64,000 nt of DNA from Candidatus Methanomethylicaceae archaeon (GCA_015660995.1 JACTUC010000006.1:14565-78564); one strand, 5' to 3'; counted from the first letter of the stretch, positions 11,625 through 55,664 are shown. A program made the numbers and translations. Notes: generated by a model not told the origin, from the letters alone.

Positions 11625-12191
11625 ATGGTGGGATTACCGCCAACGCCTGCTGAGTTAAGAGCTTTGCGCAAGAAGGCAAACCTCACACAGAAAGAACTCG
11701 CAAAAAAAGCAGGAATGAGCCAATCATTAATTGCCAGAATAGAAGCTGGAGATGTTGATCCTCGCGTATCAACTCTTAAAAAGATACTAAAGGTTCTTAA
11801 TGATGTTTCTGAAATTAGGGTATCTTTAAAGAATGTGATGCATCAGCCCGTCATTACTGTTGATGCTGACGAAACTATAGGAAAAGCAGTTGATTTGATG
11901 TGGAAACGCGGAATCTCACAACTGCCAGTTATGCAAGAAGATCGCATTATTGGTAGTATAAAAGAAGAAACAATTTTAAAGAAACTCAAAGACGAAAATA
12001 TCAAAGAATTACTTAATCTTACAATTTCTCATTTACTTGAAGAATCTTTTCCTATTGTGAGCATTGAGACGAGCCTTGATGAAGTGTCAAGGTTACTTTC
12101 AAGCGGAAGCGCAGCAGTTCTAGTGAGTGAACATGGGCGCATGATGGGAATAATCACTAAAATCGATCTTATTGCAAAACATATGATGTGA
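11625..12191 (+). CDS. XRE-HTH + CBS-pair transcriptional regulator
   Basis: LRKKANLTQKELAKKAGMSQSLIARIEAG followed by two CBS domains. Confidence 0.9.
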   Translation: MVGLPPTPAELRALRKKANLTQKELAKKAGMSQSLIARIEAGDVDPRVSTLKKILKVLNDVSEIRVSLKNVMHQPVITVDADETIGKAVDLMWKRGISQLPVMQEDRIIGSIKEETILKKLKDENIKELLNLTISHLLEESFPIVSIETSLDEVSRLLSSGSAAVLVSEHGRMMGIITKIDLIAKHMM

Positions 12192-12203
12192 CTTATACTG
12201 CGT

Positions 12204-12219
12204 TGTGATATATATCACA
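12204..12219. promoter_or_regulatory. Perfect 16-bp palindrome TGTGATATATATCACA, candidate regulator site
   Basis: Read directly; intergenic, upstream of the 12342 gene. Confidence 0.5.
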
Positions 12220-12341
12220 GTGATTGTGAGAGAGTACAAGATAGTTAGTAAATTTTCGTGATTTATTGTCACTCACAACCAAAAACCTTAAAATATCAAA
12301 CACATCATATCATATACAAAAATACCAAAAAGGTGCCTAAT

Positions 12342-12950
12342 TTGGCTTTCTCTGAACGGACAGATAGGACAAATGATGAATTAAGAGGCGAATTGGCACT
12401 TATCAGACGCGATTTATTGGAAAGAATGAGAAGGCTTGAAGATTACATAATGGTTTTAGATTCAGACATACGAAGATTGGGTCTTGAAATACAAAGAATA
12501 AATGATAGATTGCAAGATATGCCGTTAGATAGATCAACAATACAAATAACAAAGCCAGAGATCATAAGATCTACATTACCTGAACAATCAATGATCAAAC
12601 CAGAACCTGAAAGCATGCAAGTTTCACAGATAACTCAAGCATCTTTGACTCCATTGGCTGCACAGGTTGTGAAGAATTTAGAAAAGAAGGAAGGACTCAA
12701 TCAGACAGAAGTAGCAATTATCAAGTATCTTATTGATAATCCTGGCACAAAGAGTGCAACTCCGATCGCTCAAACCGTTGGAAAAGCCAGGGAACACGTC
12801 GCGAGAACTTTGAAAAAATTAGCTGATGAAAAGAAGATCATCAGAGATGTAACAACATGGCCATATACTTATGTTGTACCTGAAGAAATCAGAAAAATTG
12901 TGCAAAGTCAAGCTACAGGAACATTTTCTCCGATGCCAAGTACTCAATAA
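12342..12950 (+). CDS. Coiled-coil + C-terminal winged-HTH protein
   Basis: Heptad-like N-terminus; C-terminal SATPIAQTVGKAREHVARTLKKLADEKKI. TTG start after AGGTG preferred over 12258. Confidence 0.75.
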   Translation: MAFSERTDRTNDELRGELALIRRDLLERMRRLEDYIMVLDSDIRRLGLEIQRINDRLQDMPLDRSTIQITKPEIIRSTLPEQSMIKPEPESMQVSQITQASLTPLAAQVVKNLEKKEGLNQTEVAIIKYLIDNPGTKSATPIAQTVGKAREHVARTLKKLADEKKIIRDVTTWPYTYVVPEEIRKIVQSQATGTFSPMPSTQ

Positions 12951-12999
12951 ACTTAAGCTTTGTGACGTATGATGTGATACAGAATTTACTATCACATTT

Positions 13000-13413
13000 T
13001 TATTTCTTATTTAAATCATTTATGAAGGTTTTAACATTGTTGTCGGCTGCAAAATTTATTATTAATTTGTATTGCCAACATGAACGGTTGCCTTTACGTT
13101 CTATATAGCCATTATTGTAAAGCCTTGTGAGGTATGTAGAGATTGTGCTCGATTTAATATTCTCACGATGTTGTTCTTTATATATTAAGGATATATCTTT
13201 ACTAGTGAACCAAGAGTTGTTTAGCTTGGTTTTTATCAGATCAGTGATCTTATCCATTGAAGTCTTTGTGACGGGTATTGATGATTGTTGATATTGATTA
13301 TTATCGAAAAGGCCAATGATCTGCAATAGCCGTTCCTTAGAAAATTGCCCACTTACAGCTACTGTGACTTGTTCCCCGTTTCCATCACAGAATTCTATCT
13401 TCATCTTCTTCAT
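13000..13413 (-). CDS. Small conserved-looking winged-HTH protein
   Basis: C-terminal WFTSKDI..STISTYLTRLYNNGYIERKG wHTH; short beta-rich N-domain. Confidence 0.75.
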   Translation of the reverse strand: MKKMKIEFCDGNGEQVTVAVSGQFSKERLLQIIGLFDNNQYQQSSIPVTKTSMDKITDLIKTKLNNSWFTSKDISLIYKEQHRENIKSSTISTYLTRLYNNGYIERKGNRSCWQYKLIINFAADNNVKTFINDLNKK

Positions 13414-13499
13414 AGACGGATCACTGAGTGAGCAGTTGTTCTCTCTACCATTTCACCAGTATATGAGCATATTGTGGTTAACATTAGCTTGTAAAAGAA

Positions 13500-14510
13500 G
13501 AGAAATTTCATGGTAATTATGGTTCAAAAAGGGGAAATTTCACCGTTTTTAGCTTTTTAAGCTAATATAAGGTGAATCACAGTGAATTGATTTATAAAAG
13601 GAGTGATTCACGCATCTGGAGTGGAAGTGAAGGGGTGAACTCTGAAATGTTTTAATATAAGATAGTACATGGTAATATCACAGTGGGCCTCATAAGCCTT
13701 AAAAATACAGTTTGATGTTATTTTATGATGATTCATTATCCAATGAACTAAGATAAAGTCACTATTATAAATGCAAAGGAAAATCAGCTAGATTTTTTTA
13801 GATAAAAAGCTCTAGGTTTAATGATCTGGAAACACCATTAAATGATTAACATCTCCATGATAAACATCTTCGATGATAGTAAAGTTTATATATTAGATTT
13901 CATGGTGATTTTGTGAGCACGAAATAGAGCAGTTTATAATGAATTATTTTGGAGGTGTTTGATGATAAAGTGTAATACTATATTTACATAACCGTTAAAA
14001 AATAGATGTAATTATACAGTCAAAAACTCTGTATTTGTGCGTATTGATTGTAATATACCTCTTACATAATTCTGAGCCTGATCCTATGTTTTATGACTAT
14101 TCTGAAGTGTATGTTTGTAGAATATTTTAATAGAGATAGGAATTTACACCATATATAATAGGCCAGACTATTGATTTTTATTTATTAGGTCTCTTCCATG
14201 AGGATTTCCACTGGAATATTCTTTAAACAACCATATAAAAAAAATAGAACAAGCTTTAAATAATGCTTCTAGAAAGCAGCAGAAAATTACTTATCCTTCA
14301 GACCCCATAATTTCGTTAGGAAGTTTATATCATTAATATGTTATATTCTTTCTTTAGAAAGAAAACAGTGTAAATGTTAATGTTAAGAACTTTATATAAA
14401 TAGATTACAGTCTAAAAAAATCGAGGTTAGACTCAAAAAAATGACAATTTATGATTTAACATAGCATTCTAGTTTTTGATAATGTTCAAAGGAAGGCATG
14501 GGGTCATGCT
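13500..14510. other. Candidate replication origin (ORB-like repeats around an AT-rich region)
   Basis: CTGGAGTGGAAGTGAAGGGGT (+13616-13636), TTCCAGTGGAAA (-14205-14216), TTCCTAACGAAATTATGGGGT (-14302-14322), GTTCAAAGGAAGGCATGGGGT (+14484-14504), all in about 1.1 kb of non-coding AT-rich DNA. Confidence 0.6.
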
Positions 14511-14537
14511 CTTATAATAGATGTTTTAAAATTACTG

Positions 14538-14846
14538 ATGATATTCATGTCCAATAATACTCTCGAAATTATTCAATTAATAGCACAGTATATTCCAAAA
14601 GAACAACGAATTCTACTTCTGAAAGATCTTCTCGAAGTACACGGGTCTATCTACAAGACTTCTAAAGTAACCAAGATCTCTAGGCCGCAGCTCTATAGTT
14701 ATTTGGCATCAGATAAGAGAAGTTATCCTAACGATCAAGTAACTGCAAGGATACTTGTTAGCTTAATGGATATAAAGAGGACTCTAATAAAAGATAGACT
14801 GCGGCAACTCTCAAAAGATTTTAATGAACTTATAAACAAGATATAA
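14538..14846 (+). CDS. Small HTH protein
   Basis: GSIYKTSKVTKISRPQLYSYL..YPND HTH-like segment. Confidence 0.7.
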   Translation: MIFMSNNTLEIIQLIAQYIPKEQRILLLKDLLEVHGSIYKTSKVTKISRPQLYSYLASDKRSYPNDQVTARILVSLMDIKRTLIKDRLRQLSKDFNELINKI

Positions 14847-15236
14847 ATAATTTTGTAAAAATAGTCATTATATCTTGATTTTATTAAAACATTTTTCTTA
14901 ATAACAATTCTTTCCAGTCATTTTTTTAAATATAAAATTTCTTTTTGTATTTTTTTTTGTTAAACGATCTGATCGTTTGACGGAAAGCTTGTATGTATTA
15001 ATATTATATCCTATTAAACTCATAACATCTTAGAATCAACAAATTATTCTTGCCCAATACTTTATTATAAGAACATAGAGAATTTAAGATTTTTAAATTA
15101 AATATGTCCTGTTGAGAATAAGGAACTATTTTTATCAATTCTTAATATTTAATTTGAATAAATTTTTTCAAATTCATACAGCAAGTTTATATTTAAGTTC
15201 GTAATAAAAACGAAAAACAGTAATAATGGCTCTCAA

Positions 15237-15644
15237 ATGTTTGGGGAGGATCTCGACACAGAAGTGAATCAGTCGTCCTGTCTTCAAGAAGAAAGAGGGA
15301 TCATAGGCAAACACGTCTATGGAAACCTTTATGGTTGCGATACCAAGTCGCTAAATGACGAGTCCGCTCTCAAGAATCTTGTTATTGAGGCTGCTAAAAT
15401 AGCTAAGATGACGATATGGGATACTAAGGTGTGGCGGTTTGGTGGTTCAAAAGGAGGATTGTCTGCCCTGGCATTGATTCTTGAAAGTCATATAGCTGTT
15501 CACACGTGGAATGACTTAGAATATGCAACTGTAGACGTGTTTACATGTGGCGAAAAAAGCGAGCCAGCGTTGGCATTTGATTATATAGTCTCAGTATTGA
15601 AGCCAAAATCAGTAACCCGGCATTTGGCCAATAGGTCCTCATGA
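15237..15644 (+). CDS. Pyruvoyl-dependent arginine decarboxylase proenzyme (AdoMetDC fold, crenarchaeal type)
   Basis: LESHIAVHTW cleavage motif. IIGKHVYGNLY, FGGSKGGLS and C-terminal RSS resemble the crenarchaeal ArgDC paralogue more than SAM decarboxylase. Confidence 0.75.
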   Translation: MFGEDLDTEVNQSSCLQEERGIIGKHVYGNLYGCDTKSLNDESALKNLVIEAAKIAKMTIWDTKVWRFGGSKGGLSALALILESHIAVHTWNDLEYATVDVFTCGEKSEPALAFDYIVSVLKPKSVTRHLANRSS

Positions 15645-15728
15645 ATAAATTATTGTTTTTTTATGAAAATTTTCTTATTTAGCAATTATTTCATAAATAG
15701 AAATTAGCGCTTTTGAAAATAGAAACAA

Positions 15729-16559
15729 TCACCCAAAACAAAACTCGCAGTATGGATCGCCATTTTTAATGCATTTTCTCTCAACCGTATTACCCTTCTT
15801 ATCCATCAATAAGGTTGCTAGACCTGTCAACATTCCTCTCATAAAACTGCTTTGATAACCTTTCAACTCTTTTGTGTTTAAACATTCAAAATTATCAAAA
15901 ACTCTTATATTAAAATTTTTATCTTGAGCACTTAAGATCTCAAACTTTCCCCAGCCAAGTAACTGAAGCTGTATTAATGCCACGTTGAGCTTATGCTGCG
16001 AATTGAGAGGTAATGCTTTTATTGGCCTCATTCCTTCTGCTGATTCTCGACCCATCATCCAAATTATCGAGAGCCCACCGGCCCCGAAGGTGTCGTATAA
16101 CGCTCCAAATAAATAACCCCAAAAAGGATGCGTGAATGCTGTTACAGGAATCTTACTTCCAACAACTTCTAGCATTAAAGGAAAGCTTTTTGTGTTGCAC
16201 ATTACGCCGGGAATATTGGTATGAATATATTCAAACACAACTAATTTTTGACCAAAAAGGCTACGAATATCCTTCTCTATTGTCTCTCTGGCATCGGTTT
16301 TGCCTGTCAGATCCAGTACCGCATAACATGAAACAGAGGCTTCGGTAGATCGATTTACCACCAATTGGTAAGGAACGCCTTTATCCATTAAAATTTTATC
16401 CAAGCCTTCAACATTGCTACTTTGGTCATGTTCATTGTTGACTGTTATATAGATTCCACAATAGTCCTTTTTTGGTTCATAGAAGATGTTGTCTATGAAC
16501 GTAGGATAATTCTTCTGTTCCTCAAGATGTTCCTTGCCTACTGAATCCAACGGTTCCAA
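15729..16559 (-). CDS. V4R-domain protein (N-terminal ACT-like region)
   Basis: LGWGKFE, DNFEC, SFMRGMLTG, ERKCIKNGDPYCEF. Confidence 0.85.
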   Translation of the reverse strand: MEPLDSVGKEHLEEQKNYPTFIDNIFYEPKKDYCGIYITVNNEHDQSSNVEGLDKILMDKGVPYQLVVNRSTEASVSCYAVLDLTGKTDARETIEKDIRSLFGQKLVVFEYIHTNIPGVMCNTKSFPLMLEVVGSKIPVTAFTHPFWGYLFGALYDTFGAGGLSIIWMMGRESAEGMRPIKALPLNSQHKLNVALIQLQLLGWGKFEILSAQDKNFNIRVFDNFECLNTKELKGYQSSFMRGMLTGLATLLMDKKGNTVERKCIKNGDPYCEFCFG

Positions 16560-22591: not shown

Positions 22592-22870
22592 GTGACTAAT
22601 CTCTTGATAATACTGCTCTCTGGCGATGGTAAGTTCTTGCTTGAAGGAAAAAGTTTGGACACAGCCCTCGAATCAGGCAGGCAGCTCTTCTCCCTCCTCA
22701 GGGAAGACCGGATTCAAGAGTTCTCCGAAGCTCTAGACGAGCTTCACTCGTTTGTGAAGCAGAAGGGGCAGCCAGTTGAGATCTATCACAATGCCGACAT
22801 AATAGTTCCGCCGGTAAAGTGCGATCCAAGGACCATCCAGTCGATTATGGGGTTTCAAAAAACACCGTAA
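22592..22870 (+). CDS. Hypothetical protein
   Basis: 92 aa ORF with upstream TTTAAA; protein-like composition; no motif recognised. Confidence 0.45.
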   Translation: MTNLLIILLSGDGKFLLEGKSLDTALESGRQLFSLLREDRIQEFSEALDELHSFVKQKGQPVEIYHNADIIVPPVKCDPRTIQSIMGFQKTP

Positions 22871-24162
22871 AAAGTGCCTACGACACCATCCCAAGACCGC
22901 TTCTCCGCCCCATACCTCTTGAATGGTTTGGTAAGGTGTCTCATCGCCCTTGGCGGAGGGAGATAGGCACCGTTTATCAACTTTCTATCGACTTTCTTCA
23001 GAACCGCCAATTCTGTCTTCAAACCGCATTTCTTACACTGATAGCCTTTACCCTTGCCTTCCGACTTCATACTCTTTTTGCAGTTCGGGCAGATCGGATT
23101 CGCCGGCGCTTCTGTTACAATGTTAAGAAGCTCAAGTCTCTCGAGGTTAAATGTCAGCTTACCACTCTCAAGAAGCCTGACTCCGCCGAACGCCCTCACT
23201 TTGTCCCCTAGCAGGAGATCCCTGACAATGTTCCTGAAGCTTCCTGAAGGCTCATAGCCCGCTATATCAATCTCACCCGAACTATCCCTCATTGATGCTA
23301 TTACGTGACTACCTTTGAGAACATATGGCACTCGCGATATTGTTCCCTCAATTATCGCAGCTTGATATGGCTTCAGCTCGGCTATCAATGCCGATCGAAT
23401 GAGATGCGCTCCTGTCCCTTGGTTGCTGCGACAGACCATCCACCTCTCGCCACCAACAAACTTGATCTTGGATAGTGCCTCCATAACCACCGAGGGACTG
23501 TCCCCTCTCACCCCGAAGAGTATCGGGTCAGGGCCATGAGGTGTTATGAGCACCCGATCTTCCTCAACATCAATGTTATTGAAGGTATGCGACGTGGTAT
23601 CCCTATCAAACATAAGCACGCTTTCGTGATCTACTTCCCTCTTTTTTCCCCAAAGGGCACTGCCGCGGTATGCTATCAGCTCGAATGTGTGGTCCCTTTC
23701 GAGGGCGTTGCCTATGGATGCGAGAGCGCCTACCAGGCCCCTGCCTCCTCTTATGAGCTCGTACTTCACGTTTGCCTTCAATGCTACATCCAGTGCTTCA
23801 GCAGGTGTTATGACATCCCATAGCGCCCGACGCCCAAGATCTCTTACGATCTGTGGAACTTGACCCTCAAGAATAGCTATGCCTGGCTGATTCTTACTAT
23901 CCTTCTTGTCCCTATACTCCTCCACTAAATCTGTTGCATTGCCGAGTATTCCCATAGCGTCTGTGTCTGATGTGAATCTGAGGCATATTGCCGCGTTTCC
24001 GCGGGACTTCCAGGGAACATTTGGGTTTAGCCTAATTAGGTTCGGGTAATCGACGAACTTAGAAATCTTAATTAATCTCTCAACAAGCAGGGCACCAATA
24101 TATGTCGTGCAACCTCGCTTCAGAGAGTCCGTATCATCGATGCCGAGATGATACAGCGCCAT
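22855..24162 (-). CDS. tiaS: tRNA(Ile2) agmatidine synthetase
   Basis: GIDDTD..GCTTY, RLNPNVPWKSRGN, PHGPDPILFGVRG, SNQGT, C-terminal Zn ribbon, RHLTKP. Confidence 0.96.
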   Translation of the reverse strand: MALYHLGIDDTDSLKRGCTTYIGALLVERLIKISKFVDYPNLIRLNPNVPWKSRGNAAICLRFTSDTDAMGILGNATDLVEEYRDKKDSKNQPGIAILEGQVPQIVRDLGRRALWDVITPAEALDVALKANVKYELIRGGRGLVGALASIGNALERDHTFELIAYRGSALWGKKREVDHESVLMFDRDTTSHTFNNIDVEEDRVLITPHGPDPILFGVRGDSPSVVMEALSKIKFVGGERWMVCRSNQGTGAHLIRSALIAELKPYQAAIIEGTISRVPYVLKGSHVIASMRDSSGEIDIAGYEPSGSFRNIVRDLLLGDKVRAFGGVRLLESGKLTFNLERLELLNIVTEAPANPICPNCKKSMKSEGKGKGYQCKKCGLKTELAVLKKVDRKLINGAYLPPPRAMRHLTKPFKRYGAEKRSWDGVVGTFYGVF

Positions 24163-25048: not shown

Positions 25049-25350
25049 GGGCGTGTTGGCCATAACCCACCTTCTGTTTTAAGCAGCATTCGACTATGCG
25101 GGCTACCCAGGCTTCCTGTAGGCGTCATAAGCCTCTATTTGCCCTTTCTCCCCGCGGTTTGGCCGTTTCAACGCAACCAGTGGCATCCTCGGCGAGAAGC
25201 ACTCGCCCCATCGACGCACGCCACTGGACGTCCCGTTTCTGTTCCAAGAGCAGGGGTCTCCCCCTGCGCCTCGCGGCGCCGCAGCCCTACATGGAGGGTG
25301 GAGTTTCCTCAGACCTCGAAGAGGCCCGTAAGCTGCTCACCAACTCGCCC
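25049..25350 (-). ncRNA. rnpB: RNase P RNA (type A)
   Basis: GAGGAAACTCC, AACAGAAAC, TGAAACGGC, AACAGAAGGTGGGTTA; P1 pairing of the ends; P8 and P9 hairpins present. Confidence 0.93.
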
Positions 25351-26152: not shown

Positions 26153-29221
<3,069 letters not shown>

Positions 29222-29348
29222 TACTTCTAAACCTAGTCTGGTGCCGGAAACACTGGAACCAATGCACGGCGGTAATCGCAAGGCAATCGTCACCCTGCTG
29301 CGCCCTTCGCTGGCAGAGTTTCCTCCCCAGCTGCATCTGCTGATTTTT

Positions 29349-30957
<1,609 letters not shown>

Positions 30958-48072: not shown

Positions 48073-49242
48073 TTGAGATATTTCACCAGCCCATACAACT
48101 TTCTTCACCAGGAATGCAGACAGATAAAGATCTACGATACGACCCTCAGGGATGGGGAGCAAACCCCGGGCGTCAAGTTCACGAAAGAGCACAAGGTCCA
48201 GATCGCGAGGAAGCTCGACACCTTGGGCGTGCACACAATTGAGGCTGGGTTCCCTGTAATATCCGCCTATGACGAGGAGGCAGTCAGGGCCGTCGCAGCC
48301 GAGCACCTCAGCGCCGACGTCATATGCCTTTGCAGGTCAAAGAAGAAGGACATAGATGCCGCGCTGAGGGCAGACGTAGACGGAGTAATAATATTCCTGG
48401 CTGTGTCAGATCTACACCTGAAGCACAAGCTGCACATTGATCTCACGACCGCCGTGAACATGGCAGCAGAATCAATCTCCTACGCTAAGGAGCACGGCCT
48501 CTATGTCCAGCTCTCGGCTGAGGATGCCACACGAACCTCGCTTGACTCGCTGACAGCACTCTACAGTGCAGCAGAGGAGAGCGGGGCAGACAGGCTAGGC
48601 ATTGCGGACACGACAGGTTGCATAAGACCCCAGGGGATGCACTACCTCGTGGAATCGCTGCGGAAGGTCTTTGACACAGAGCTCTCGGTCCATTGCCACG
48701 ACGACTTCGGGCTGGCAGTGGCAAACTCGCTCGCAGCCTACGAGGCTGGCGTGGATGCGATATCTGTCACAGTCAACGGTCTCGGCGAGAGGTGTGGCAA
48801 CGCTGCACTGGAGGAGGTCGTTATGGCTCTCTATTCCCTATACGGGGTAGACCTCAAGTTCAGGATCGATCTGCTCAAGTCACTCTCTGACATGGTCTCG
48901 GAGTACTCTGGTATCCCTATCCCGATAAACAAGGCCGTCGTAGGCCCCAACGCTTTCAGGCATGAATCGGGGATCCACGTGGCTGCCGTGATGAAGTGCC
49001 CGTTCACCTATGAATCCTACGAGCCGCAGCTGGTGGGTCAGGACAGGAAGCTAGTCTTCGGCAGGCACTCCGGGTCCGACGGCGTCAGGGAGAAACTCAA
49101 GTCCTTTGGCTTAGCTATCAGCGATGAAGAGCTTGCTGACATCGTAAGCCAACTGAAGACCCTACCGATGGACGCCTATCTCGATAACGATGGGCTAGCC
49201 GATTTCGCCAAGAAGATCCTGGCGAAGAGGGGCAGAAGTTGA
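48073..49242 (+). CDS. aksA: Methanogen (R)-homocitrate synthase
   Basis: MRYFTSPYN..IYDTTLRDGEQTPGV, DVDGVI.F...SDLHLKHKL, HCHDDFGLA, GLGERCGN, HESGIH; no LeuA regulatory domain. Confidence 0.85.
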   Translation: MRYFTSPYNFLHQECRQIKIYDTTLRDGEQTPGVKFTKEHKVQIARKLDTLGVHTIEAGFPVISAYDEEAVRAVAAEHLSADVICLCRSKKKDIDAALRADVDGVIIFLAVSDLHLKHKLHIDLTTAVNMAAESISYAKEHGLYVQLSAEDATRTSLDSLTALYSAAEESGADRLGIADTTGCIRPQGMHYLVESLRKVFDTELSVHCHDDFGLAVANSLAAYEAGVDAISVTVNGLGERCGNAALEEVVMALYSLYGVDLKFRIDLLKSLSDMVSEYSGIPIPINKAVVGPNAFRHESGIHVAAVMKCPFTYESYEPQLVGQDRKLVFGRHSGSDGVREKLKSFGLAISDEELADIVSQLKTLPMDAYLDNDGLADFAKKILAKRGRS

Positions 49243-50066
49243 GCAAAGGAGTCTATTCACTCGCCACATCCAACAAGGCAAAGGTGGCGGTTGGGCTCAA
49301 TTCGGACCTCCCGTCAGCGGAGAGGGTGGTGAACTCGGCCCTCTTCGCCAAGAGGGAAGGTTACGCCGAGCCAATTTTCATCTCTGCGAAGAAACCCGAA
49401 TCCCCCCTATTCGATGCAGTAGGCAAGGACATGTCTCTTATCGTGGACAAATCTCCACACGTGACACTGGTCGAGCTCCTGAAGGAAGGCACGGTGGATT
49501 CTGCCATCAGGGGCAACCTCGCTTCCAAGGAACTCATACCCCTGCTCCGCGAGGAGTTCAATTGTCCCAACCTCTGCCGCATCACCCTGCTCGACATAGC
49601 AAATAGGCTCGTTATGCTGGCGCCTGTGGGCATAGACGAGGGGGACAAGCTGGAGGACCTACTCATGATAGCAGGGCACGCAAAGAGGCTGGCAGAGGCG
49701 CTCAGGATGCCATGCAATGTCGCAGTCATCTCAGGAGGGCGGCTCGAGGACAGGGGAAGAAGCAAGAAAGTGGACAGCATGCTATCTGCCTCGGAATCGC
49801 TCACGAAGGAGCTGAAGGCGGTGGGTATTAGCGCTGTGAATGTCGGGATCGAGATCGAGCGGGCAATAGAGGGCGACTCAACCCTCATACTTGCTCCCGA
49901 TGGCGTGATGGGAAACCTGATCTTCAGATCGCTTGTCCTAGTTGGGAACGTCGAGAGCTTCGGGGCCTACGCGGCTGCACTGCCGAGGGTTTATGTCGAC
50001 ACCTCGCGGGCTAAGGGAAGCTTCATGCTGCCAATAGTCCTTGCCAGCGCCCTCAGCAAGCTTTAA
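49239..50066 (+). CDS. mtxX: Methanogenesis marker protein 4 (MtxX family)
   Basis: VDSAIRG, LAPVGIDEG, SGGRLEDRGRS..VD, APDG..GNLIFRSL, VDTSR. Confidence 0.88.
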   Translation: MSKGVYSLATSNKAKVAVGLNSDLPSAERVVNSALFAKREGYAEPIFISAKKPESPLFDAVGKDMSLIVDKSPHVTLVELLKEGTVDSAIRGNLASKELIPLLREEFNCPNLCRITLLDIANRLVMLAPVGIDEGDKLEDLLMIAGHAKRLAEALRMPCNVAVISGGRLEDRGRSKKVDSMLSASESLTKELKAVGISAVNVGIEIERAIEGDSTLILAPDGVMGNLIFRSLVLVGNVESFGAYAAALPRVYVDTSRAKGSFMLPIVLASALSKL

Positions 50067-50144
50067 AGGCCCCGCACTGCTTGGCGCGGCATTACGACAA
50101 CTAAAAATAGCCGCCATACCCTCTTATAGGAAGAGGTCTCAACA

Positions 50145-51380
50145 TTGGGAAGCACAGCTGTTGAGAAGATAATTTCTCGTTCCGCGGGCCGAGCCGTGCA
50201 GGTGGGCGAGTTCGTCGAGGTTCCTGTAGATTTTGCCTATTTACACGATGGCACAGGCCCATTGATCGTAGATGCCCTCGGCAAGATGGGCGTTGAGAAG
50301 GTCATTGACCCAGACAGAGTGGGGATAGTCTTCGATCACTCCGTCCCGCCATACAGCGACCAGGCAGCAACTCTGCAAGCAAAAGTTAGGAAGTTTGCAA
50401 GGTCTCAGGGGATATTGAAGTTCCATGACCTCGGCGAAGGCATATGCCACCAGGTTATGCCCGAGAAGGGCTATGTCAGCCCTGGAACAGTTGTGATAGG
50501 CGCCGATTCCCATAGCTGCACTCTCGGCTGCTTCGGGCTCTTCTCATCTGGTGTGGGTGCAACGGACCTGGCCTACATACTCGCCACCGGGGGCACATGG
50601 CTCAAGGTCCCTGAGACTCTGAAGGTAGAATGCACAGGGGTTCTGAAAGGCAAGTTGTCGTCGAAGGACCTCATACTAGAGATCGTGAAGATGGTCGGGA
50701 CCGACGGCGCAACCTACAAGGCGCTTGAATTCAGTGGCGAGGCGGTCCGGCAGATGTCCCAATCATCAAGGATGACCATGTCCAACATGGCTGTGGAGAT
50801 GGGCGCAAAGACTGGATTCATGGAGGCGGACGCGAAGACATTCGAGTTCCTCGGCAGGACAGGTCCCGTCGTCAAGACCGACTCCAAGACCGAGACCGTG
50901 ACCGTCGATGCTGGCAGTCTCGATCCCAAGGTCGCCTGCCCGGGGAGCGTAGCCAACGTGAAATCAGTTGTAGAGGTAGAGGGTACCCACATCGATCAGG
51001 CATTCCTGGGCTCGTGCACCAACGGGAGGTATGAGGACCTCTACGAAGCCGCGAAGATAATAAAGGGGAAGAAGGTGCACCAGGATACTAGGTTCATTGT
51101 AATCCCCGCCTCGAAGACTATACAGCTGGCGGCGCAGAAGGACGGGCTCATGGACATATTCCAGGAAGCTGGCGCAATTATAGGTGTTACCGGCTGCGGG
51201 CCGTGCTTGGGCGTGCATATGGGGGTCTTGGGTGAGAATGAGGTCTGCGTATCCACTTCCAACAGGAACTTCATTGGGAGGATGGGTCACCCCAAGTCCT
51301 CGGTCTACCTTGCTTCCGCGCAGACGGTTGCGGCGTCAGCAGTCGAGGGGAAGATAACCGATCCAAGGAGGTTTGCTTGA
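50145..51380 (+). CDS. aksD: Homoaconitase large subunit
   Basis: [42 protein letters not shown]. Confidence 0.85.
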
Positions 51381-51868
51381 TGCTAAAAGGTCGAGTCTGG
51401 AAGTTCGGGGATGACGTCGACACCGATGTGATTATACCTGCAAAGTACCTCCGGTCTGTGGACCAGACTGTATGGCCGAAGCACGTTCTGGAGGGGCTCG
51501 ATCCCAGCTTCAGCTTAAAGGTGAAGCTTGGCGACATAATCGTCGCGGGTAAGAACTTTGGCTGCGGCTCCAGCAGGGAACAGGCAGCACTGGCGATCAA
51601 GTGGGCTGGTGTGGCTGCCGTGATTGCCGAATCCTTCGCTAGAATATTCTTCAGGAACGCCATAAACAACGGCCTACCCCTGATCGAATGCAGGGGGATA
51701 AGCAAGCTCGTGGAGGAGGGAGAGGTCATAGCGGTTGACCTCGATCGCGGCGAGGTCCGCACAAACAATGGGATGTTGAGGTCGGTCCCACTGCCGCCAT
51801 TCCTGCAGGAAATTGTCAACAGCGGTGGCCTCGTCGAGTACTATAAAGCAAGAAAGAAGGTGCATTGA
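51377..51868 (+). CDS. aksE: Homoaconitase small subunit
   Basis: [13 protein letters not shown] (YLRx loop of tricarboxylate-acting enzymes), [20 protein letters not shown]. Confidence 0.85.
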
Positions 51869-53473
51869 TTGTCTAGGATCACACAACGGGATGCCGGATC
51901 GCCCAACACATCCCAGGTCGTGGTGAAGGCCCTTGAGAAGCTCGGCATTGGCGTCGCCTTCGGCATACCAGGCATGTGGTCATTGCCAATCTATGATGCG
52001 CTCTGCGACTCGAAGATACGACACGTCCTCGTCAGGCACGAGCAGTTTGCGGCCTATGCTGCTGACGGGTACGCAAGGGCTTCCGGGAAGCCAGGCTTCT
52101 GCCTAGGCACGGCTGGACCTGGCGCAGTCAACATCGCAGCAGGCATCGCTGTGCCGTTCCGAGACCATTCCCCGGTCATCGCAGTGACCGGTCAGGTTCC
52201 CACTTTCGAGCAAGGGAAAGGATGGATAGAGGATCTCGACCTCCAGGCAATATTTTCTCCCGTTACCAAATCCACAGCGCAGATCTCGGACCCAACAAAT
52301 GCATACGAGACCATCACCGCCGCATACCTTTCATCAATCGAGGGGTGTCCCGGCCCCTCCCACGTAAGCATACCTGGGGATATCCAGAAGGCGCCATCCA
52401 AGATGAGGGATTACTCCCCGCTCCCTTCCAAGCCCGAACCCGACCCATCAGCCATCGACCAAGTCATGGACGCCATAGCCTCGTCGCAAGCCCCGCTCAT
52501 AATCTCAGGGTGGGGTGCAATCCTATCCGAATCCTCCGAGGGCATTCTGAAGCTCGCCGAGGCGCTTCCAGCACCCGTAACCACATCCTACATGGGCAGA
52601 GGAATAATACCGGAGGACAACCCGCTTTCCCTTGGTCCTGCAGGAAGAAGGGGGACGAAGGAAGCAAACGCTGCTCTCTCCAGATGCGACCTGCTCATAA
52701 CCCTAGGATGCAGGCTGACCAACCTGACGGTCGCGGGCGCTAAGCTGACCTGCAAAGTAGTTCAGGTGGATGTCGATGAAAACAACTTTTCATCCTACGC
52801 CTCGGTCAGGGTGAAAAGCGACGTTGCACTCTTCCTGGACGCAATACTGCCCAAAATCCAACATCGCTCAGGTGAACTTAACCCTCTGATGGGCTCTGTG
52901 AGCGAGCTGCCCGAAAAAGGGGAGGCCCCTGCCTTCGCCAGGGCCATCGCATCCTTCAATGATGCCCTATTCTCCCTCGACATTGGACAGCATACCATTT
53001 GGCTGATGCACGCGCTGAAGGTCAAGAGACCGCGGAGCGTGATCCTCTCGGGCAACCTCTCTGCAATGGGTTACTCCCTGCCTGCAGCCATCGGGGCAAA
53101 GCTGGCCTCGCCAGAACGCAGGGTCATTGTCGTGATCGGCGATGGCGGCTTCCAGATGACCGCCCCCGAGCTCTCTACCATCAGGGAGAACGACCTCGAC
53201 ATATCCATATGCGTATTCAACAACCGTACGCTGGGACTGATAAAGCAGCAGCAGGAGGTCGTCTACGGCAGGACGTGCGGTGTGGACTATACACGCCCTC
53301 CAGACTATGTCAAGCTTGCTCAAGCCTATGGCATTAAGGGACTAAAGATAGATTCCCCCTCCGCCCTCAAAGAAGCACTCCAGATAGCTGACGAGCCTAC
53401 GGTCTTTGATATTCCAATCCCAAAGAAGGAAGGCGTCGAGATGTCAAGACCTAGGATCCTCGACAATCAATGA
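51869..53473 (+). CDS. ThDP-dependent enzyme (three-domain decarboxylase/AHAS-like family), substrate unknown
   Basis: FGIPG, RHEQ catalytic Glu, GPG..N, GDGGFQM...NN; lacks AHAS-specific motifs. Confidence 0.85.
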   Translation: MSRITQRDAGSPNTSQVVVKALEKLGIGVAFGIPGMWSLPIYDALCDSKIRHVLVRHEQFAAYAADGYARASGKPGFCLGTAGPGAVNIAAGIAVPFRDHSPVIAVTGQVPTFEQGKGWIEDLDLQAIFSPVTKSTAQISDPTNAYETITAAYLSSIEGCPGPSHVSIPGDIQKAPSKMRDYSPLPSKPEPDPSAIDQVMDAIASSQAPLIISGWGAILSESSEGILKLAEALPAPVTTSYMGRGIIPEDNPLSLGPAGRRGTKEANAALSRCDLLITLGCRLTNLTVAGAKLTCKVVQVDVDENNFSSYASVRVKSDVALFLDAILPKIQHRSGELNPLMGSVSELPEKGEAPAFARAIASFNDALFSLDIGQHTIWLMHALKVKRPRSVILSGNLSAMGYSLPAAIGAKLASPERRVIVVIGDGGFQMTAPELSTIRENDLDISICVFNNRTLGLIKQQQEVVYGRTCGVDYTRPPDYVKLAQAYGIKGLKIDSPSALKEALQIADEPTVFDIPIPKKEGVEMSRPRILDNQ

Positions 53474-53518
53474 GATTAATAGCTGGCGACATAAAAACAA
53501 AGAGCGAGGGTACATCCA

Positions 53519-54490
53519 ATGGCGGAATACTATTCTAGAGACGCCATAGTGAAACTCCTTTCCTCGAAGAAATGGATCTCCCCCCATAAGAAGGTCGTCG
53601 TGGCCGTGGACAAGAAGGCTGGAGTGGCGGAACTTATCGAGGATCACGCCAGAGGAACATGCCTCGGGGGATCGGCTTGGTCGCTCTACCACTATACGGA
53701 GAACAGCAAGTCTGTCTTCTGGTCAAAGAGAGAGGGCTCGCGCCTCTTCTATAAGCTGAAGCTGTCTGAAGAGAATGCTCCAAGTAAGTTGGAGGCGAGC
53801 TACCACCCAGCATCCATAGAGTCGATCCACTTGGATGGTGACAAGGTAAGGGTGACCTATTCTGGGCTCGCCGGAGCTGGCGTGGCAGCCCTCAGCAGAG
53901 GCTTGGCAGAGGGTGTTGAGGCAGTTGAAGTTCAGGAATGGGGGGGTGGGAAGAAACTGGGCAGAGCAACCATCATCCTCCCACTGAAGGAAAAGCTGAT
54001 AATCGGCGTTGACGACACAGACAAATCCGATGAGGGCGCCACCTGGTCCTTGGTTAACGAGATTGCCTTTGAGATCTCAAAATTGGAGGGGGTCGACTAT
54101 CTTGAGCATGCCATTGTACAGCTCTACCCACAGAATCCCTTCAAGACCCAGAACTGCGTCTCCCTCTCCGTCTCATTCGCCGTCCCTCCGTCCCTAAAAG
54201 AAGGGATAGTAGAAAGGTTCAAAGACGCCATTGGGGAAAGGACGTTCTCCAAGGAGACCGCCATGGCATACTTCAATGGTGTAATGATCAAGGAAGAACT
54301 GATGGCTTTCTCCAAAAGGGCAAAGTTGGAGATGGTGACCGTTGAAGACGCGGAAGAGGCAGCAGAAATGGCTGGCGTCTCGACTATTAAAATAACGGGT
54401 GCTAGGGGGCTAATAGGTGCAGTAGCCGCAATACCCTATGTTGAGTATCCCGACGAAGCCGTTCGCATCTCTGGCGATCAAGTTGTTTGA
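53519..54490 (+). CDS. Methanogenesis marker protein 11 (TiaS-kinase-like C-terminal half)
   Basis: W..P.KKV, GLAGAGV..RGLAEGV, GGGKKLGRA, IGVDDTD..EGATW, VQLYPQNPFKTQNCVS. Confidence 0.85.
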   Translation: MAEYYSRDAIVKLLSSKKWISPHKKVVVAVDKKAGVAELIEDHARGTCLGGSAWSLYHYTENSKSVFWSKREGSRLFYKLKLSEENAPSKLEASYHPASIESIHLDGDKVRVTYSGLAGAGVAALSRGLAEGVEAVEVQEWGGGKKLGRATIILPLKEKLIIGVDDTDKSDEGATWSLVNEIAFEISKLEGVDYLEHAIVQLYPQNPFKTQNCVSLSVSFAVPPSLKEGIVERFKDAIGERTFSKETAMAYFNGVMIKEELMAFSKRAKLEMVTVEDAEEAAEMAGVSTIKITGARGLIGAVAAIPYVEYPDEAVRISGDQVV

Positions 54491-55664
54491 CTTTATCGTC
54501 GTCGGTTCTGGGGCGGGGGGCGCAACTGTAGCCAAGGAACTCTCCGCAGCGGGAAAGAAGGTGCTGCTGCTTGAGAGGGGCATACAACTGCCACCACGAA
54601 AGTCCTCCAAAGCATACTCTATTCTGAAATCCGACGTGGAGGTCTGGCATACCCAATGCCTGGGCGGAACAACGGTGGTTACCATGGGCAACGCTGTCAG
54701 GAGCAAGCTCGATGGTTCACTTTCGCGTTATTACGCCGAGGCAGAGGAGGGGCTTGGGGTTATCCCGGTGCCGGAAGACCACTTGGGCATGGCAACCAAG
54801 TCACTGCTCTCCCTCTCAGATGAATGGGTCAGAATGCCCAAGGCTATAGACTTCAGTAAGTGTAGAGGCTGTGGGCACTGCTCCTCGGGGTGTCCGACAT
54901 CGGCCAGATGGGACGCCACAGCCTATATTCGGGAGGCTATCTCTAACAGCTGCAAGGTTTCTACCAGTGTCGACATAAAGAAAGTATTGATTAAGGGCAA
55001 TAGAGCGGTGGGCGTTGAAGCCTCTGACGGAAAAACCTTCGAAGCTGGCGGCGTAATCCTAGCTGCAGGAGCCATCGAAACGCCTAGGATCCTATCACGA
55101 TCAGGCATAATCTCGGCTGGGAAGGGGCTCTTCGTCGACACCTTCGTAACCATCGGGGGCTTTAAAAGAGGTGTTTCGATGGATCGGGAGCTCGGTATGG
55201 CTGCCTTTCTAAAGAGGGAAGGTTACCTGATATCACCTCATTACTCAAGTTTTCTACCCAATCTGATAGAAGAGAAAGGTGTGTCGCTCAAACCATCCGA
55301 CATATTGAGCCTAATGGTAAAGATTGAAGATGAGCCCATCGGCGAGGTTACCCCAAATGGCATTGTTAAAACCATATCACGGCGGGACTCTACCCTTTTG
55401 GAGAGTGGTAAGCGCGAAGCGATGGAGCTTCTAATCAAAGCCGGGGTAGACTCGGACACAGTTGTATCTGTACACCCAAGGGGCGCACACCCAGGCGGAA
55501 CCTGTTCCAATATGGTGAAATCGCCTTTGGAAGCTAGCACAGAGATTGACTCCCTGTACATCTCGGACGCGAGCATACTTCCCGGTCCATTTGGCCTGCC
55601 GCCAATGCTCACAATAATCGCAATTTCCAAGAGGATATCTGGCATACTACTTGGAAGAGCCTAG
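54483..55664 (+). CDS. GMC-family FAD oxidoreductase with CxxCxxCxxxC motif
   Basis: VGSGAGG, CRGCGHCSSGCP, LAAGAIETPRIL, HPGGT, DASILP..G.PP.LTI; TTG start overlaps the Mmp11 stop. Confidence 0.85.
   Translation: MFDFIVVGSGAGGATVAKELSAAGKKVLLLERGIQLPPRKSSKAYSILKSDVEVWHTQCLGGTTVVTMGNAVRSKLDGSLSRYYAEAEEGLGVIPVPEDHLGMATKSLLSLSDEWVRMPKAIDFSKCRGCGHCSSGCPTSARWDATAYIREAISNSCKVSTSVDIKKVLIKGNRAVGVEASDGKTFEAGGVILAAGAIETPRILSRSGIISAGKGLFVDTFVTIGGFKRGVSMDRELGMAAFLKREGYLISPHYSSFLPNLIEEKGVSLKPSDILSLMVKIEDEPIGEVTPNGIVKTISRRDSTLLESGKREAMELLIKAGVDSDTVVSVHPRGAHPGGTCSNMVKSPLEASTEIDSLYISDASILPGPFGLPPMLTIIAISKRISGILLGRA

Follow-up and report, generated by a model that had tools for sequence, protein, structure and literature searches.

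A candidate coenzyme B operon with putative late-step enzymes in an uncultured Methanomethylicales archaeon

Which genes finish coenzyme B (CoB) once its carbon chain has been built? The aksADEF chain-elongation genes were identified years ago, and AksA, HacA and HacB act together with a homoisocitrate-type dehydrogenase to elongate 2-oxoglutarate to 2-oxosuberate. The CoB pathway 'is still unknown' according to a 2025 paper (PMC12068725), and Kaster et al. (2011) give an 'estimated 2 unknown proteins' for CoB. We address this question at a cluster of seven genes on the plus strand (48073-55664) of what we call the window, a 64-kb stretch of DNA (contig C3:14565-78564) from a 1.63-Mb Methanomethylicales metagenome-assembled genome (MAG) of 28 contigs and 98.3% completeness, which represents an uncultured, methane-producing archaeon. 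We put the probability that this cluster is a CoB operon including at least one late-step enzyme at roughly 0.6, and we consider this reading the best one because it is favoured by synteny that spans two phyla, by a sharply delimited phyletic pattern and by protein folds that match. Calling of open reading frames (ORFs) on the window, with predicted starts (TTG or ATG) that are those of the longest ORF except in the last gene, gave the following genes.

48073-49242, plus strand: AksA-like enzyme of the homocitrate/isopropylmalate-synthase family (389 aa; HMGL-like and HCS_D2 domains)
49239-50066, plus strand: Mmp4/MtxX, phosphotransacetylase fold (275 aa; TIGR03270, DTSR motif)
50145-51380, plus strand: HacA/AksD-like homoaconitase large subunit (411 aa; hacA_fam)
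51377-51868, plus strand: HacB/AksE-like small subunit (163 aa; LEUD_arch; specificity loop YLRS)
51869-53473, plus strand: IlvB-family thiamine diphosphate (ThDP) enzyme, candidate 2-oxosuberate decarboxylase (534 aa; TPP_enzyme_N/M/C)
53519-54490, plus strand: Mmp11, candidate ATP-dependent activating enzyme (323 aa; TIGR03280 and TiaS_TCKD)
54483-55664, plus strand: short GMC-type flavin adenine dinucleotide (FAD) protein with a CxxCxxCxxxC motif, candidate redox enzyme of the thiol step (393 aa; GMC_oxred_N)

The initial annotation of this DNA had described seven co-oriented genes in this order, with four of the six junctions overlapping or abutting and gaps of 78 and 45 bp at the others, and the ORFs and the sequence agree with it. 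AksA and Mmp4 overlap by 4 nt (49239/49242), as do HacA and HacB (51377/51380), HacB abuts the ThDP gene (51868/51869), and gaps of 78 nt and 45 nt separate Mmp4 from HacA and the ThDP gene from Mmp11, respectively. The fourth close junction, an 8-nt overlap of Mmp11 with the GMC gene, holds only if the latter starts with the TTG at 54483; its longest ORF starts at 54438, and eight homologues begin at the position equivalent to 54483 (MFDFIVVGSG). Since opposite-strand sugar-nucleotide/polysaccharide genes lie on both flanks, the cluster is a discrete, bounded unit. The genome encodes McrA, on a contig other than that of the window, and four genes with paired CCG domains that are HdrB/D-like, so that the check for methyl-coenzyme M reductase (MCR) and Hdr suggested along with the initial annotation came out positive for McrA and for HdrB/D-like genes; the 64-kb window itself holds no mcr genes.

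The gene arrangement was followed across other genomes through Mmp11. Metagenome contigs were scanned with a 16-row subset of a diverse alignment, and the best 80 of at least 436 confirmed loci, among at least 597 candidates, were used. A FastTree phylogeny of 105 Mmp11 rows (98 for loci and the window, 7 for named references), labelled by neighbouring genes, resolved about 12 clades, and ORFs within 6 kb of 102 Mmp11 genes in 12 clades were clustered all against all into neighbour families. The only families that recur in at least three Mmp11 clades are AksA, ThDP, Mmp4, HacA, HacB and GMC: AksA and the ThDP enzyme in clades A, B, C and D, Mmp4 in A, B, E and a paralogue clade, HacA and HacB in A, B and F, and GMC in A, B and D, with the Iso_dh family found in F and B. 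AksA orthologues adjoin both the ThDP gene and Mmp11 in clades A to D.

As far as the contigs reach, 10 Methanomethylicales genome loci share the order of the seven genes, with 53-84% protein identity; some of them have one extra gene between mmp4 and hacA, and one has a 6-kb insertion there. The order also occurs in several metagenome loci. Conservation of the order in 10 loci at such identities makes the gene arrangement more than chance. A genome of a sister family (G165) carries the order Mmp4-AksA-HacA-HacB-X-ThDP-Mmp11, followed by an opposite-strand methyltransferase gene and GMC, where X is an Iso_dh protein whose best equivalog matches include AksF2_Meth and AksF_Meth. Moreover, AksA-ThDP-Mmp11 occurs in 5 of 9 loci of a second family of the class (f5), in which two further loci are short. 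Outside the phylum, clade D, whose proteins are 80-86% identical to named proteins of Ca. Methanofastidiosum, a member of a euryarchaeal class, shows the order Mmp11-AksA-ThDP with a convergent GMC gene in two loci (L096 and L108) and Mmp11-AksA-ThDP alone in a short one (L120). The synteny of aks genes with mmp4 and mmp11 that the initial annotation had put forward for checking is thus present in other families of the class and in Methanofastidiosa and is absent from Methanococcales-like loci and from clades E and H; clade I instead pairs mmp11 with a different ThDP-binding protein.

The phyletic pattern points in the same direction. Among 401 sampled Thermoproteota genomes, 37 have McrA and 35 have Mmp11 above its cut-off, with 29 having both; five of the six Mmp11-positive genomes without McrA belong to McrA-bearing families. 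A profile built from the ThDP clade scores 606-793 bits in 31 of the 401 genomes and 505 bits with one truncated copy, compared with 476 bits for the best ALS-type (acetolactate synthase) protein. All 32 of these genomes fall in f1, f2 and f5, the three Mmp11-bearing families, and Mmp11 passes its cut-off in 31 of them and is truncated, at a contig end, in the remaining one; none of the sampled genomes that lack an Mmp11 match has a ThDP orthologue. The families that bear ThDP and Mmp11 are kin, and their co-occurrence is to be read as a pattern rather than as a statistical test.

The ThDP enzyme has all three ThDP domains, and its best NCBIfam matches are acetolactate synthases, all far under their equivalog cut-offs (TIGR00118, 403.5 bits versus 538.35). 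The IlvB of the genome itself lies elsewhere (C20:44110-45732) and groups with named ALS in a tree in which the linked ThDP enzymes of clades A, B and C fall into a single clade of 27 rows (100% local support) that is distinct both from ALS and from a clade of 535-residue 'TPP-binding' proteins of Methanobacterium. An ALS identity was therefore rejected on the grounds of the sub-cut-off scores, the separate clade and the presence of a distinct IlvB, and the ThDP-enzyme assignment of the initial annotation holds as a description: the protein is a paralogue of the genome's IlvB in a clade of its own. The proposed role follows the logic of the late steps of coenzyme M (CoM) synthesis, in which ComDE decarboxylates a 2-oxoacid to an aldehyde with ThDP and a COG1900 protein (ComF/MMP16) then carries out reductive thiolation. 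It differs in that the candidate decarboxylase in the window belongs to the IlvB family and in that a GMC-type Fe-S (iron-sulfur) flavoprotein is proposed in place of COG1900. ComD was not found in the 98.3%-complete genome, and the organism may be without the known CoM route. A second, non-homologous ThDP protein occurs at mmp11 in the main subclade of clade I, where all 10 loci have the order truD-mmp11 followed by a 480-aa IorA-like ThDP-binding protein (TPP_enzyme_C) at 0-14 bp (for example L134:8673-12339, plus nine further loci); we take it as a further hint toward a CoB role for the cluster.

Mmp11 matches TIGR03280 (methan_mark_11) over model positions 2-291 of 292 with 316.9 bits (cut-off 255.8), and its C-terminal part matches TiaS_TCKD (1.3e-17). 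In an AlphaFold2 (AF2) model (predicted local distance difference test, pLDDT, 95.1), residues ~160-315 superpose on TiaS (Foldseek E 2.7e-08, probability 1.00, root mean square deviation ~3 A over 155-159 columns). TiaS splits ATP to phosphorylate the C2 oxygen of cytidine for attack by the amine of agmatine and autophosphorylates Thr18. The C-terminal ~155 residues of Mmp11 share the TCKD fold and the GxDDTD...T motif with TiaS, and in the HMMER alignment the DDTD...T residues fall on TiaS D8, D9, D11 and T18; T167 and T175 do not vary across 49 Mmp11 sequences, in which D165, D166, D168 and G173 reach 90% conservation or more. The analogy would lie in an ATP-dependent phosphorylation of a carbonyl or carboxyl oxygen that is followed by amine attack. 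The two proteins differ in the rest of the chain, since Mmp11 is without the further domains of TiaS, which bind tRNA, and has instead an N-terminal domain of 155 residues for which Foldseek returned only insignificant ACT-like or M20-like matches and Pfam gave nothing useful at E up to 10. Against the full TiaS model NF040849, Mmp11 scores 49.3 bits (cut-off 600) and aligns over positions 3-152 of 422. The possibility that Mmp11 is the TiaS of this cell was rejected, since a full-length TiaS is encoded at 22855-24162 of the window (minus strand; NF040849 388.6 bits, cut-off 600, positions 3-419 of 422), 29 kb upstream of Mmp11. The initial annotation's 'ATP-dependent activating enzyme' is accordingly supported as far as a TiaS-type kinase domain goes; the activating role is a candidate one. 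The family is small, with 171 representatives at E up to 1e-3 among 1.84 billion proteins searched with HMMER.

The chain-elongation candidates belong to the same families as the Methanocaldococcus jannaschii synthase AksA and two-subunit hydrolyase AksD-AksE of the AksA/AksD-AksE/AksF system, and the window proteins have the methanogen models of HacA and HacB among their best matches. The scores of all three remain below the equivalog cut-offs, a point of difference from the M. jannaschii system: AksA, with HMGL-like (1.7e-82) and HCS_D2 domains, reaches 468.5 bits with LEU1_arch (cut-off 484.75), HacA passes hacA_fam with 546 bits and reaches 522.8 with HacA_Meth (cut-off 550), and HacB passes LEUD_arch with 218.7 bits and reaches 200.1 with HacB_Meth (cut-off 230). 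A further difference is that the window cluster holds no dedicated AksF, whereas the sister lineage has one inside its cluster; in M. jannaschii the aks genes are dispersed.

AksA is one of four closer paralogues in the genome, and three LeuC/LeuD-type pairs are present, on C20, on C15 and in the window cluster, so that the cluster holds a third paralogous set. The C20 pair adjoins LysX and an Iso_dh fragment and is read as the lysine (aminoadipate) set, and the C15 pair lies 3.6 kb from a LeuB-type gene. The Iso_dh fragments at two contig ends, C15:11469-12041 (model positions 153-348) and C20:42-419 (1-141), appear to be parts of a single gene that the assembly has broken, in which case C15 and C20 would be joined. 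The small-subunit loops also separate the sets, being YLRS in the window HacB and YLVL and YKFK in its genome paralogues, so that only the window protein has an Arg, which we take to be a homoaconitase-type signature; the loop is YLRT in clade B HacB and, as Jeyakanthan and colleagues are said to have reported in 2010, in M. jannaschii HacB. Judged by their families, the window AksA, HacA and HacB would thus take part in the elongation to 2-oxosuberate. A lysine-only function, which had been named as a finding that would undo the proposal, was rejected because a separate LeuCD-type pair and Iso_dh adjoin LysX on C20. Taken together, the separate LeuCD sets (one by LysX, one by the LeuB-type gene), the separate IlvB and the separate TiaS mean that the cluster is not amino-acid or tRNA housekeeping, and it is not the source of leucine, isoleucine, lysine or agmatidine; ilvN, ilvC and leuB are all absent from it.

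Mmp4 scores 186.2 bits with TIGR03270 (methan_mark_4/MtxX; cut-off 190), matches PDB 9nzy (MTH_231) by sequence at E 1.1e-26 and has no match to any Pfam family, including PTA_PTB, even at E up to 10. A structure paper of February 2026 describes a phosphotransacetylase/PlsX-like fold and cleft for MtxX, in which the catalytic Asp of phosphotransacetylase (PTA) is not conserved, and leaves the function of the protein unassigned (PMC12978539). The 9nzy match and this description confirm the acyl-phosphate-transferase fold that the initial annotation had ascribed to Mmp4. With PTA, PTB and PlsX, Mmp4 shares the fold and the catalytic Ser-Arg pair of the DTSR motif. D254 and R257 are invariant, Arg and Ser residues are invariant across 13 sequences, and a kinase next to such a transferase recalls the Ack-Pta pairing. 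It differs from them in lacking the proposed catalytic Asp, in being 30-100 residues shorter and in the extra conserved Arg residues of the MtxX cleft, which the window protein keeps; the proposed acceptor would, moreover, be an amine and not CoA or phosphate.

The last gene of the cluster was listed in the initial annotation, which missed its Fe-S motif. The protein matches GMC_oxred_N (1.1e-17), with weak matches to GMC_oxred_C (0.0011) and Fer4. Nine sequences, some as low as 34% identical, all keep C127, C130, C133 and C137, which form the CxxCxxCxxxC motif, and H336, the GMC histidine; the motif is the reason for considering the protein a possible redox enzyme of the step that makes the thiol. 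Its AF2 model, of moderate confidence (pLDDT 77.8), has as best Foldseek matches the catalytic subunits of fructose dehydrogenase and FAD-glucose dehydrogenase (E ~4e-21, template modelling (TM) score 0.77-0.79 by query) and matches many further GMC enzymes at E 4e-21 or weaker. The window protein shares the GMC fold with the FAD-glucose dehydrogenase of Burkholderia cepacia and the fructose dehydrogenase of Gluconobacter japonicus, whose catalytic subunits presumably carry an Fe-S cluster. It differs from them in being ~140 residues shorter at 13-19% identity and, by context, cytoplasmic, with no cytochrome or small-subunit gene nearby. Neither a COG1900/HcyBio protein (MMP16/ComF, L-ASST) nor an FlpD/MvhD domain was found in the 98.3%-complete genome. 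COG1900 enzymes have been suggested for the thiol step of CoB by Chadwick and colleagues (PMC12068725); as the genome has no COG1900 protein, the suggested enzymes seem to be missing and the proposal of a GMC enzyme gains some weight. Judged by sequence, this genome seems to lack the established routes to the thiols of CoM and of CoB.

These observations may be assembled into a route to CoB. The aks-type enzymes, with a homoisocitrate-type dehydrogenase encoded elsewhere, would make 2-oxosuberate, and the IlvB-family ThDP enzyme would convert it to 7-oxoheptanoate by non-oxidative decarboxylation. The GMC Fe-S flavoprotein might then deliver two electrons, entering via the Fe-S cluster and leaving as a hydride from FAD, to reduce an aldehyde-sulfide adduct to the thiol 7-mercaptoheptanoate. 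Mmp11 would use ATP to phosphorylate the carboxylate oxygen of this compound to give 7-mercaptoheptanoyl phosphate, just as TiaS does with the C2 oxygen of cytidine, and Mmp4/MtxX would transfer the acyl group of the acyl phosphate to the amino group of threonine, whose hydroxyl could be phosphorylated by a second activity of Mmp11 or by an unlinked kinase. The elongation step follows from family knowledge, and every later step is inferential. The late-step gene assignments made here are plausible. We lean slightly toward the ThDP enzyme being a late-step decarboxylase; Mmp11 as the activating enzyme falls a little short of even odds, Mmp4 as the acyl transferase is doubtful, and the GMC protein as the redox enzyme of the thiol step is somewhat more doubtful still. 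The complete scheme, in which Mmp11 and Mmp4 form a new kind of amide ligase, the GMC protein replaces COG1900 and the ThDP enzyme is a 2-oxosuberate decarboxylase, together completing the CoB pathway, is unlikely to be right in all its parts at once.

A number of observations weigh against the CoB operon reading, and we consider it weakened in particular by the lack of linkage in several classical methanogen orders and by one McrA-positive genome without Mmp11. Cluster genes are near mmp11 in none of five Methanocaldococcus/Methanotorris-like loci (clade G), in none of four loci of clade H and, apart from Mmp4 in the Bathyarchaeia genome G378, nowhere in clade E; the euryarchaeal contexts come from the 80 metagenome loci, which were chosen by their likeness to the Methanomethylicales query, and Methanosarcinales and Methanomicrobiales may be under-sampled among them. 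Within the class, two f5 loci with at least 9 kb of flank on each side show no linkage, the ThDP gene of genome G186 lies ~20 kb from mmp11, and kinship among lineages A, B and C keeps them from counting as independent cases. Transfer could account for the Methanofastidiosa cluster, and the Methanofastidiosum ThDP enzymes sit on a long branch of their own that does not group with the clade of A to C. The McrA-positive genome in question, G002 (100% complete; McrA at C1:245172-245555), has only a TiaS-type match, no Mmp11 and no ThDP orthologue, and carries an unclustered GMC-like gene (C6:90797-92029). Conversely, no McrA match was found in the 98%-complete genome G378, assigned to Bathyarchaeia through a protein 100% identical to a named one; its gene order is Mmp4-Mmp11-radical SAM (S-adenosylmethionine). 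Four genomes lacking both McrA and Mmp11 encode GMC-like homologues (268-427 bits), and the GMC-like genes of f5 are not clustered with aks genes. Moreover, a dedicated third Iso_dh (AksF) gene was not found in the genome, which has only two Iso_dh genes.

Clade F, Methanobacterium and Methanobrevibacter in the listed loci (76-90% identical to named proteins), has the order HacA-HacB-Iso_dh-RibH-Mmp11, in some loci with SufS before RibH, and might have been counted as a further case. Its HacA_Meth score is 562 (cut-off 550), its dehydrogenase is closest to AksF2_Meth (506 versus 540), and its small-subunit loop is YLIY or YLVL, without Arg. Kaster et al. (2011) give both Methanothermobacter gene sets as alternatives for CoB. 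We dropped this synteny as independent support because the loop lacks Arg and Kaster et al. leave the choice between Aks and Leu open, which further weighs on the same side. Some Methanobacterium-like loci have a SufS-family cysteine desulfurase gene upstream of mmp11, placed after the Iso_dh gene and before ribH (L074:8054-9253 and L077:6550-7806).

Among the alternatives, the likeliest is a split of function. CoB chain synthesis would fall to AksA, HacAB and perhaps the ThDP enzyme, and Mmp4, Mmp11 and the GMC protein would take part in some other process linked to MCR (its assembly or post-translational modification, for instance) or in making another cofactor, with adjacency due to co-regulation or shared inheritance. 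We regard it as unlikely, though worth keeping in view. In Euryarchaeota, according to the structure paper, mtxX adjoins uppS, mmp12, mtxAH or mmp2, the last in the component A2 cluster, in a synteny survey that left out Thermoproteota and aks genes (PMC12978539); this, too, counts against a common CoB function. Likewise, one locus of the other subclade of clade I (L141:91-2939) has the order ycaO (methan_mark_1)-tfuA-hycI-like protease-mmp11, which points towards MCR modification; ATP-dependent activation of a carbonyl oxygen is common to YcaO and TiaS. The pairing of Mmp11 with a TIGR04043 radical SAM protein in all seven clade E/E2 loci with downstream flank and the lack of linkage to aks in Methanococcales-like loci would fit as well. 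Such a division of labour sits poorly with the finding that the cluster's own families are the only neighbours shared by three or more Mmp11 clades, that AksA-ThDP-Mmp11 is kept, in rearranged form, in two phyla, that the ThDP orthologues of the 401 genomes occur only alongside Mmp11, and that McrA lies on another contig with no mcr gene in the window.

It is also conceivable, and in our view improbable, that the elongated 2-oxoacids lead to a product other than CoB, for example a pimelate/biotin precursor, or another thiol or amide, with Mmp11 and Mmp4 ligating the acid to an amine other than threonine. Nothing in the chemistry deduced from the folds, that of a decarboxylase, a kinase-type activator, an acyl-phosphate transferase and a flavoprotein, calls specifically for a C7 chain or for threonine. 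Mmp4-Mmp11 occurs in the Bathyarchaeia genome where McrA was not found, and GMC-like homologues exist in genomes without MCR. Set against this are the presence of McrA in 29 of the 35 Mmp11-positive genomes, with five of the other six in McrA-bearing families, and the small size of the Mmp11 family; to our knowledge, CoB is also the sole methanogen-specific end product of the Aks pathway. An ordinary operon for branched-chain amino acids or lysine (LeuA/CimA, LeuCD, IlvB) into which unrelated marker genes were inserted is very hard to credit. The best NCBIfam names, isopropylmalate synthase, isopropylmalate dehydratase family and acetolactate synthase, and the sub-cut-off equivalog scores of AksA, HacA and HacB speak for it; against it, LeuA-family, LeuCD-type, Iso_dh and IlvB genes exist elsewhere in the genome, one set of them beside LysX, the ThDP enzyme is far under every ALS cut-off and in a separate clade, the HacB loop has an Arg, and ilvN, ilvC and leuB are missing from the cluster. 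We therefore return to the CoB operon with at least one late-step enzyme as the preferred reading; the initial annotation, which had proposed it, was right in its descriptive elements, while the functional role is still a matter of inference and the linkage is not universal.

Several Mmp11 loci have neighbours that merit description in their own right. The TIGR04043 (MSMEG_0568-type) radical SAM gene of clade E/E2, whose members are labelled Bathyarchaeia or Archaeoglobaceae, overlaps the 3' end of mmp11 (L049:10484-11635, L078:10935-11972, L088:6678-7781, and L085, L086, L103 and L106), and its product bears a weak likeness to LipS2 and BioB; it is conceivable that it is a sulfur-inserting partner of Mmp11. 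At L069:1319-4267, two radical SAM genes follow mmp11, the first of them LipS1-like (224 bits, cut-off 230). The sister-family genome G165 has three Mmp11-like genes (loci L044, L052 and L053), one of which (L052) lies beside a second Mmp4 paralogue, and at L044:12644-15085 genes for a ThiF/MoeB/UbaA-type E1 and a Thi4 thiazole synthase stand directly upstream of mmp4 on the same strand.

Elsewhere in the window, an archaeal rRNA operon lies on the minus strand at 26156-30897 (23S at 26156-29216, 16S at 29400-30897) and an RNase P RNA at 25051-25348, also on the minus strand, which together explain an ORF-free, GC-rich stretch. Positions 12001-16000 have a G+C content of 0.31-0.34, compared with 0.40-0.56 elsewhere, and few long ORFs.

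The literature that we searched, mostly open-access and excluding supplements, contains no gene function for Mmp11 or for a late CoB step and no publication of the late-step assignments made here, and a prior suggestion elsewhere is possible. Our analysis provides four concrete candidate genes with matching chemistry for the late steps of CoB, a question that has been open since the pathway was outlined. If the reading is true, it would give the first functional assignments for two conserved methanogenesis marker families, and it would allow better metabolic calls in MCR-encoding MAGs. It would also allow heterologous hosts to produce CoB, a requirement for expressing MCR, and could provide new targets for methane-mitigation inhibitors.

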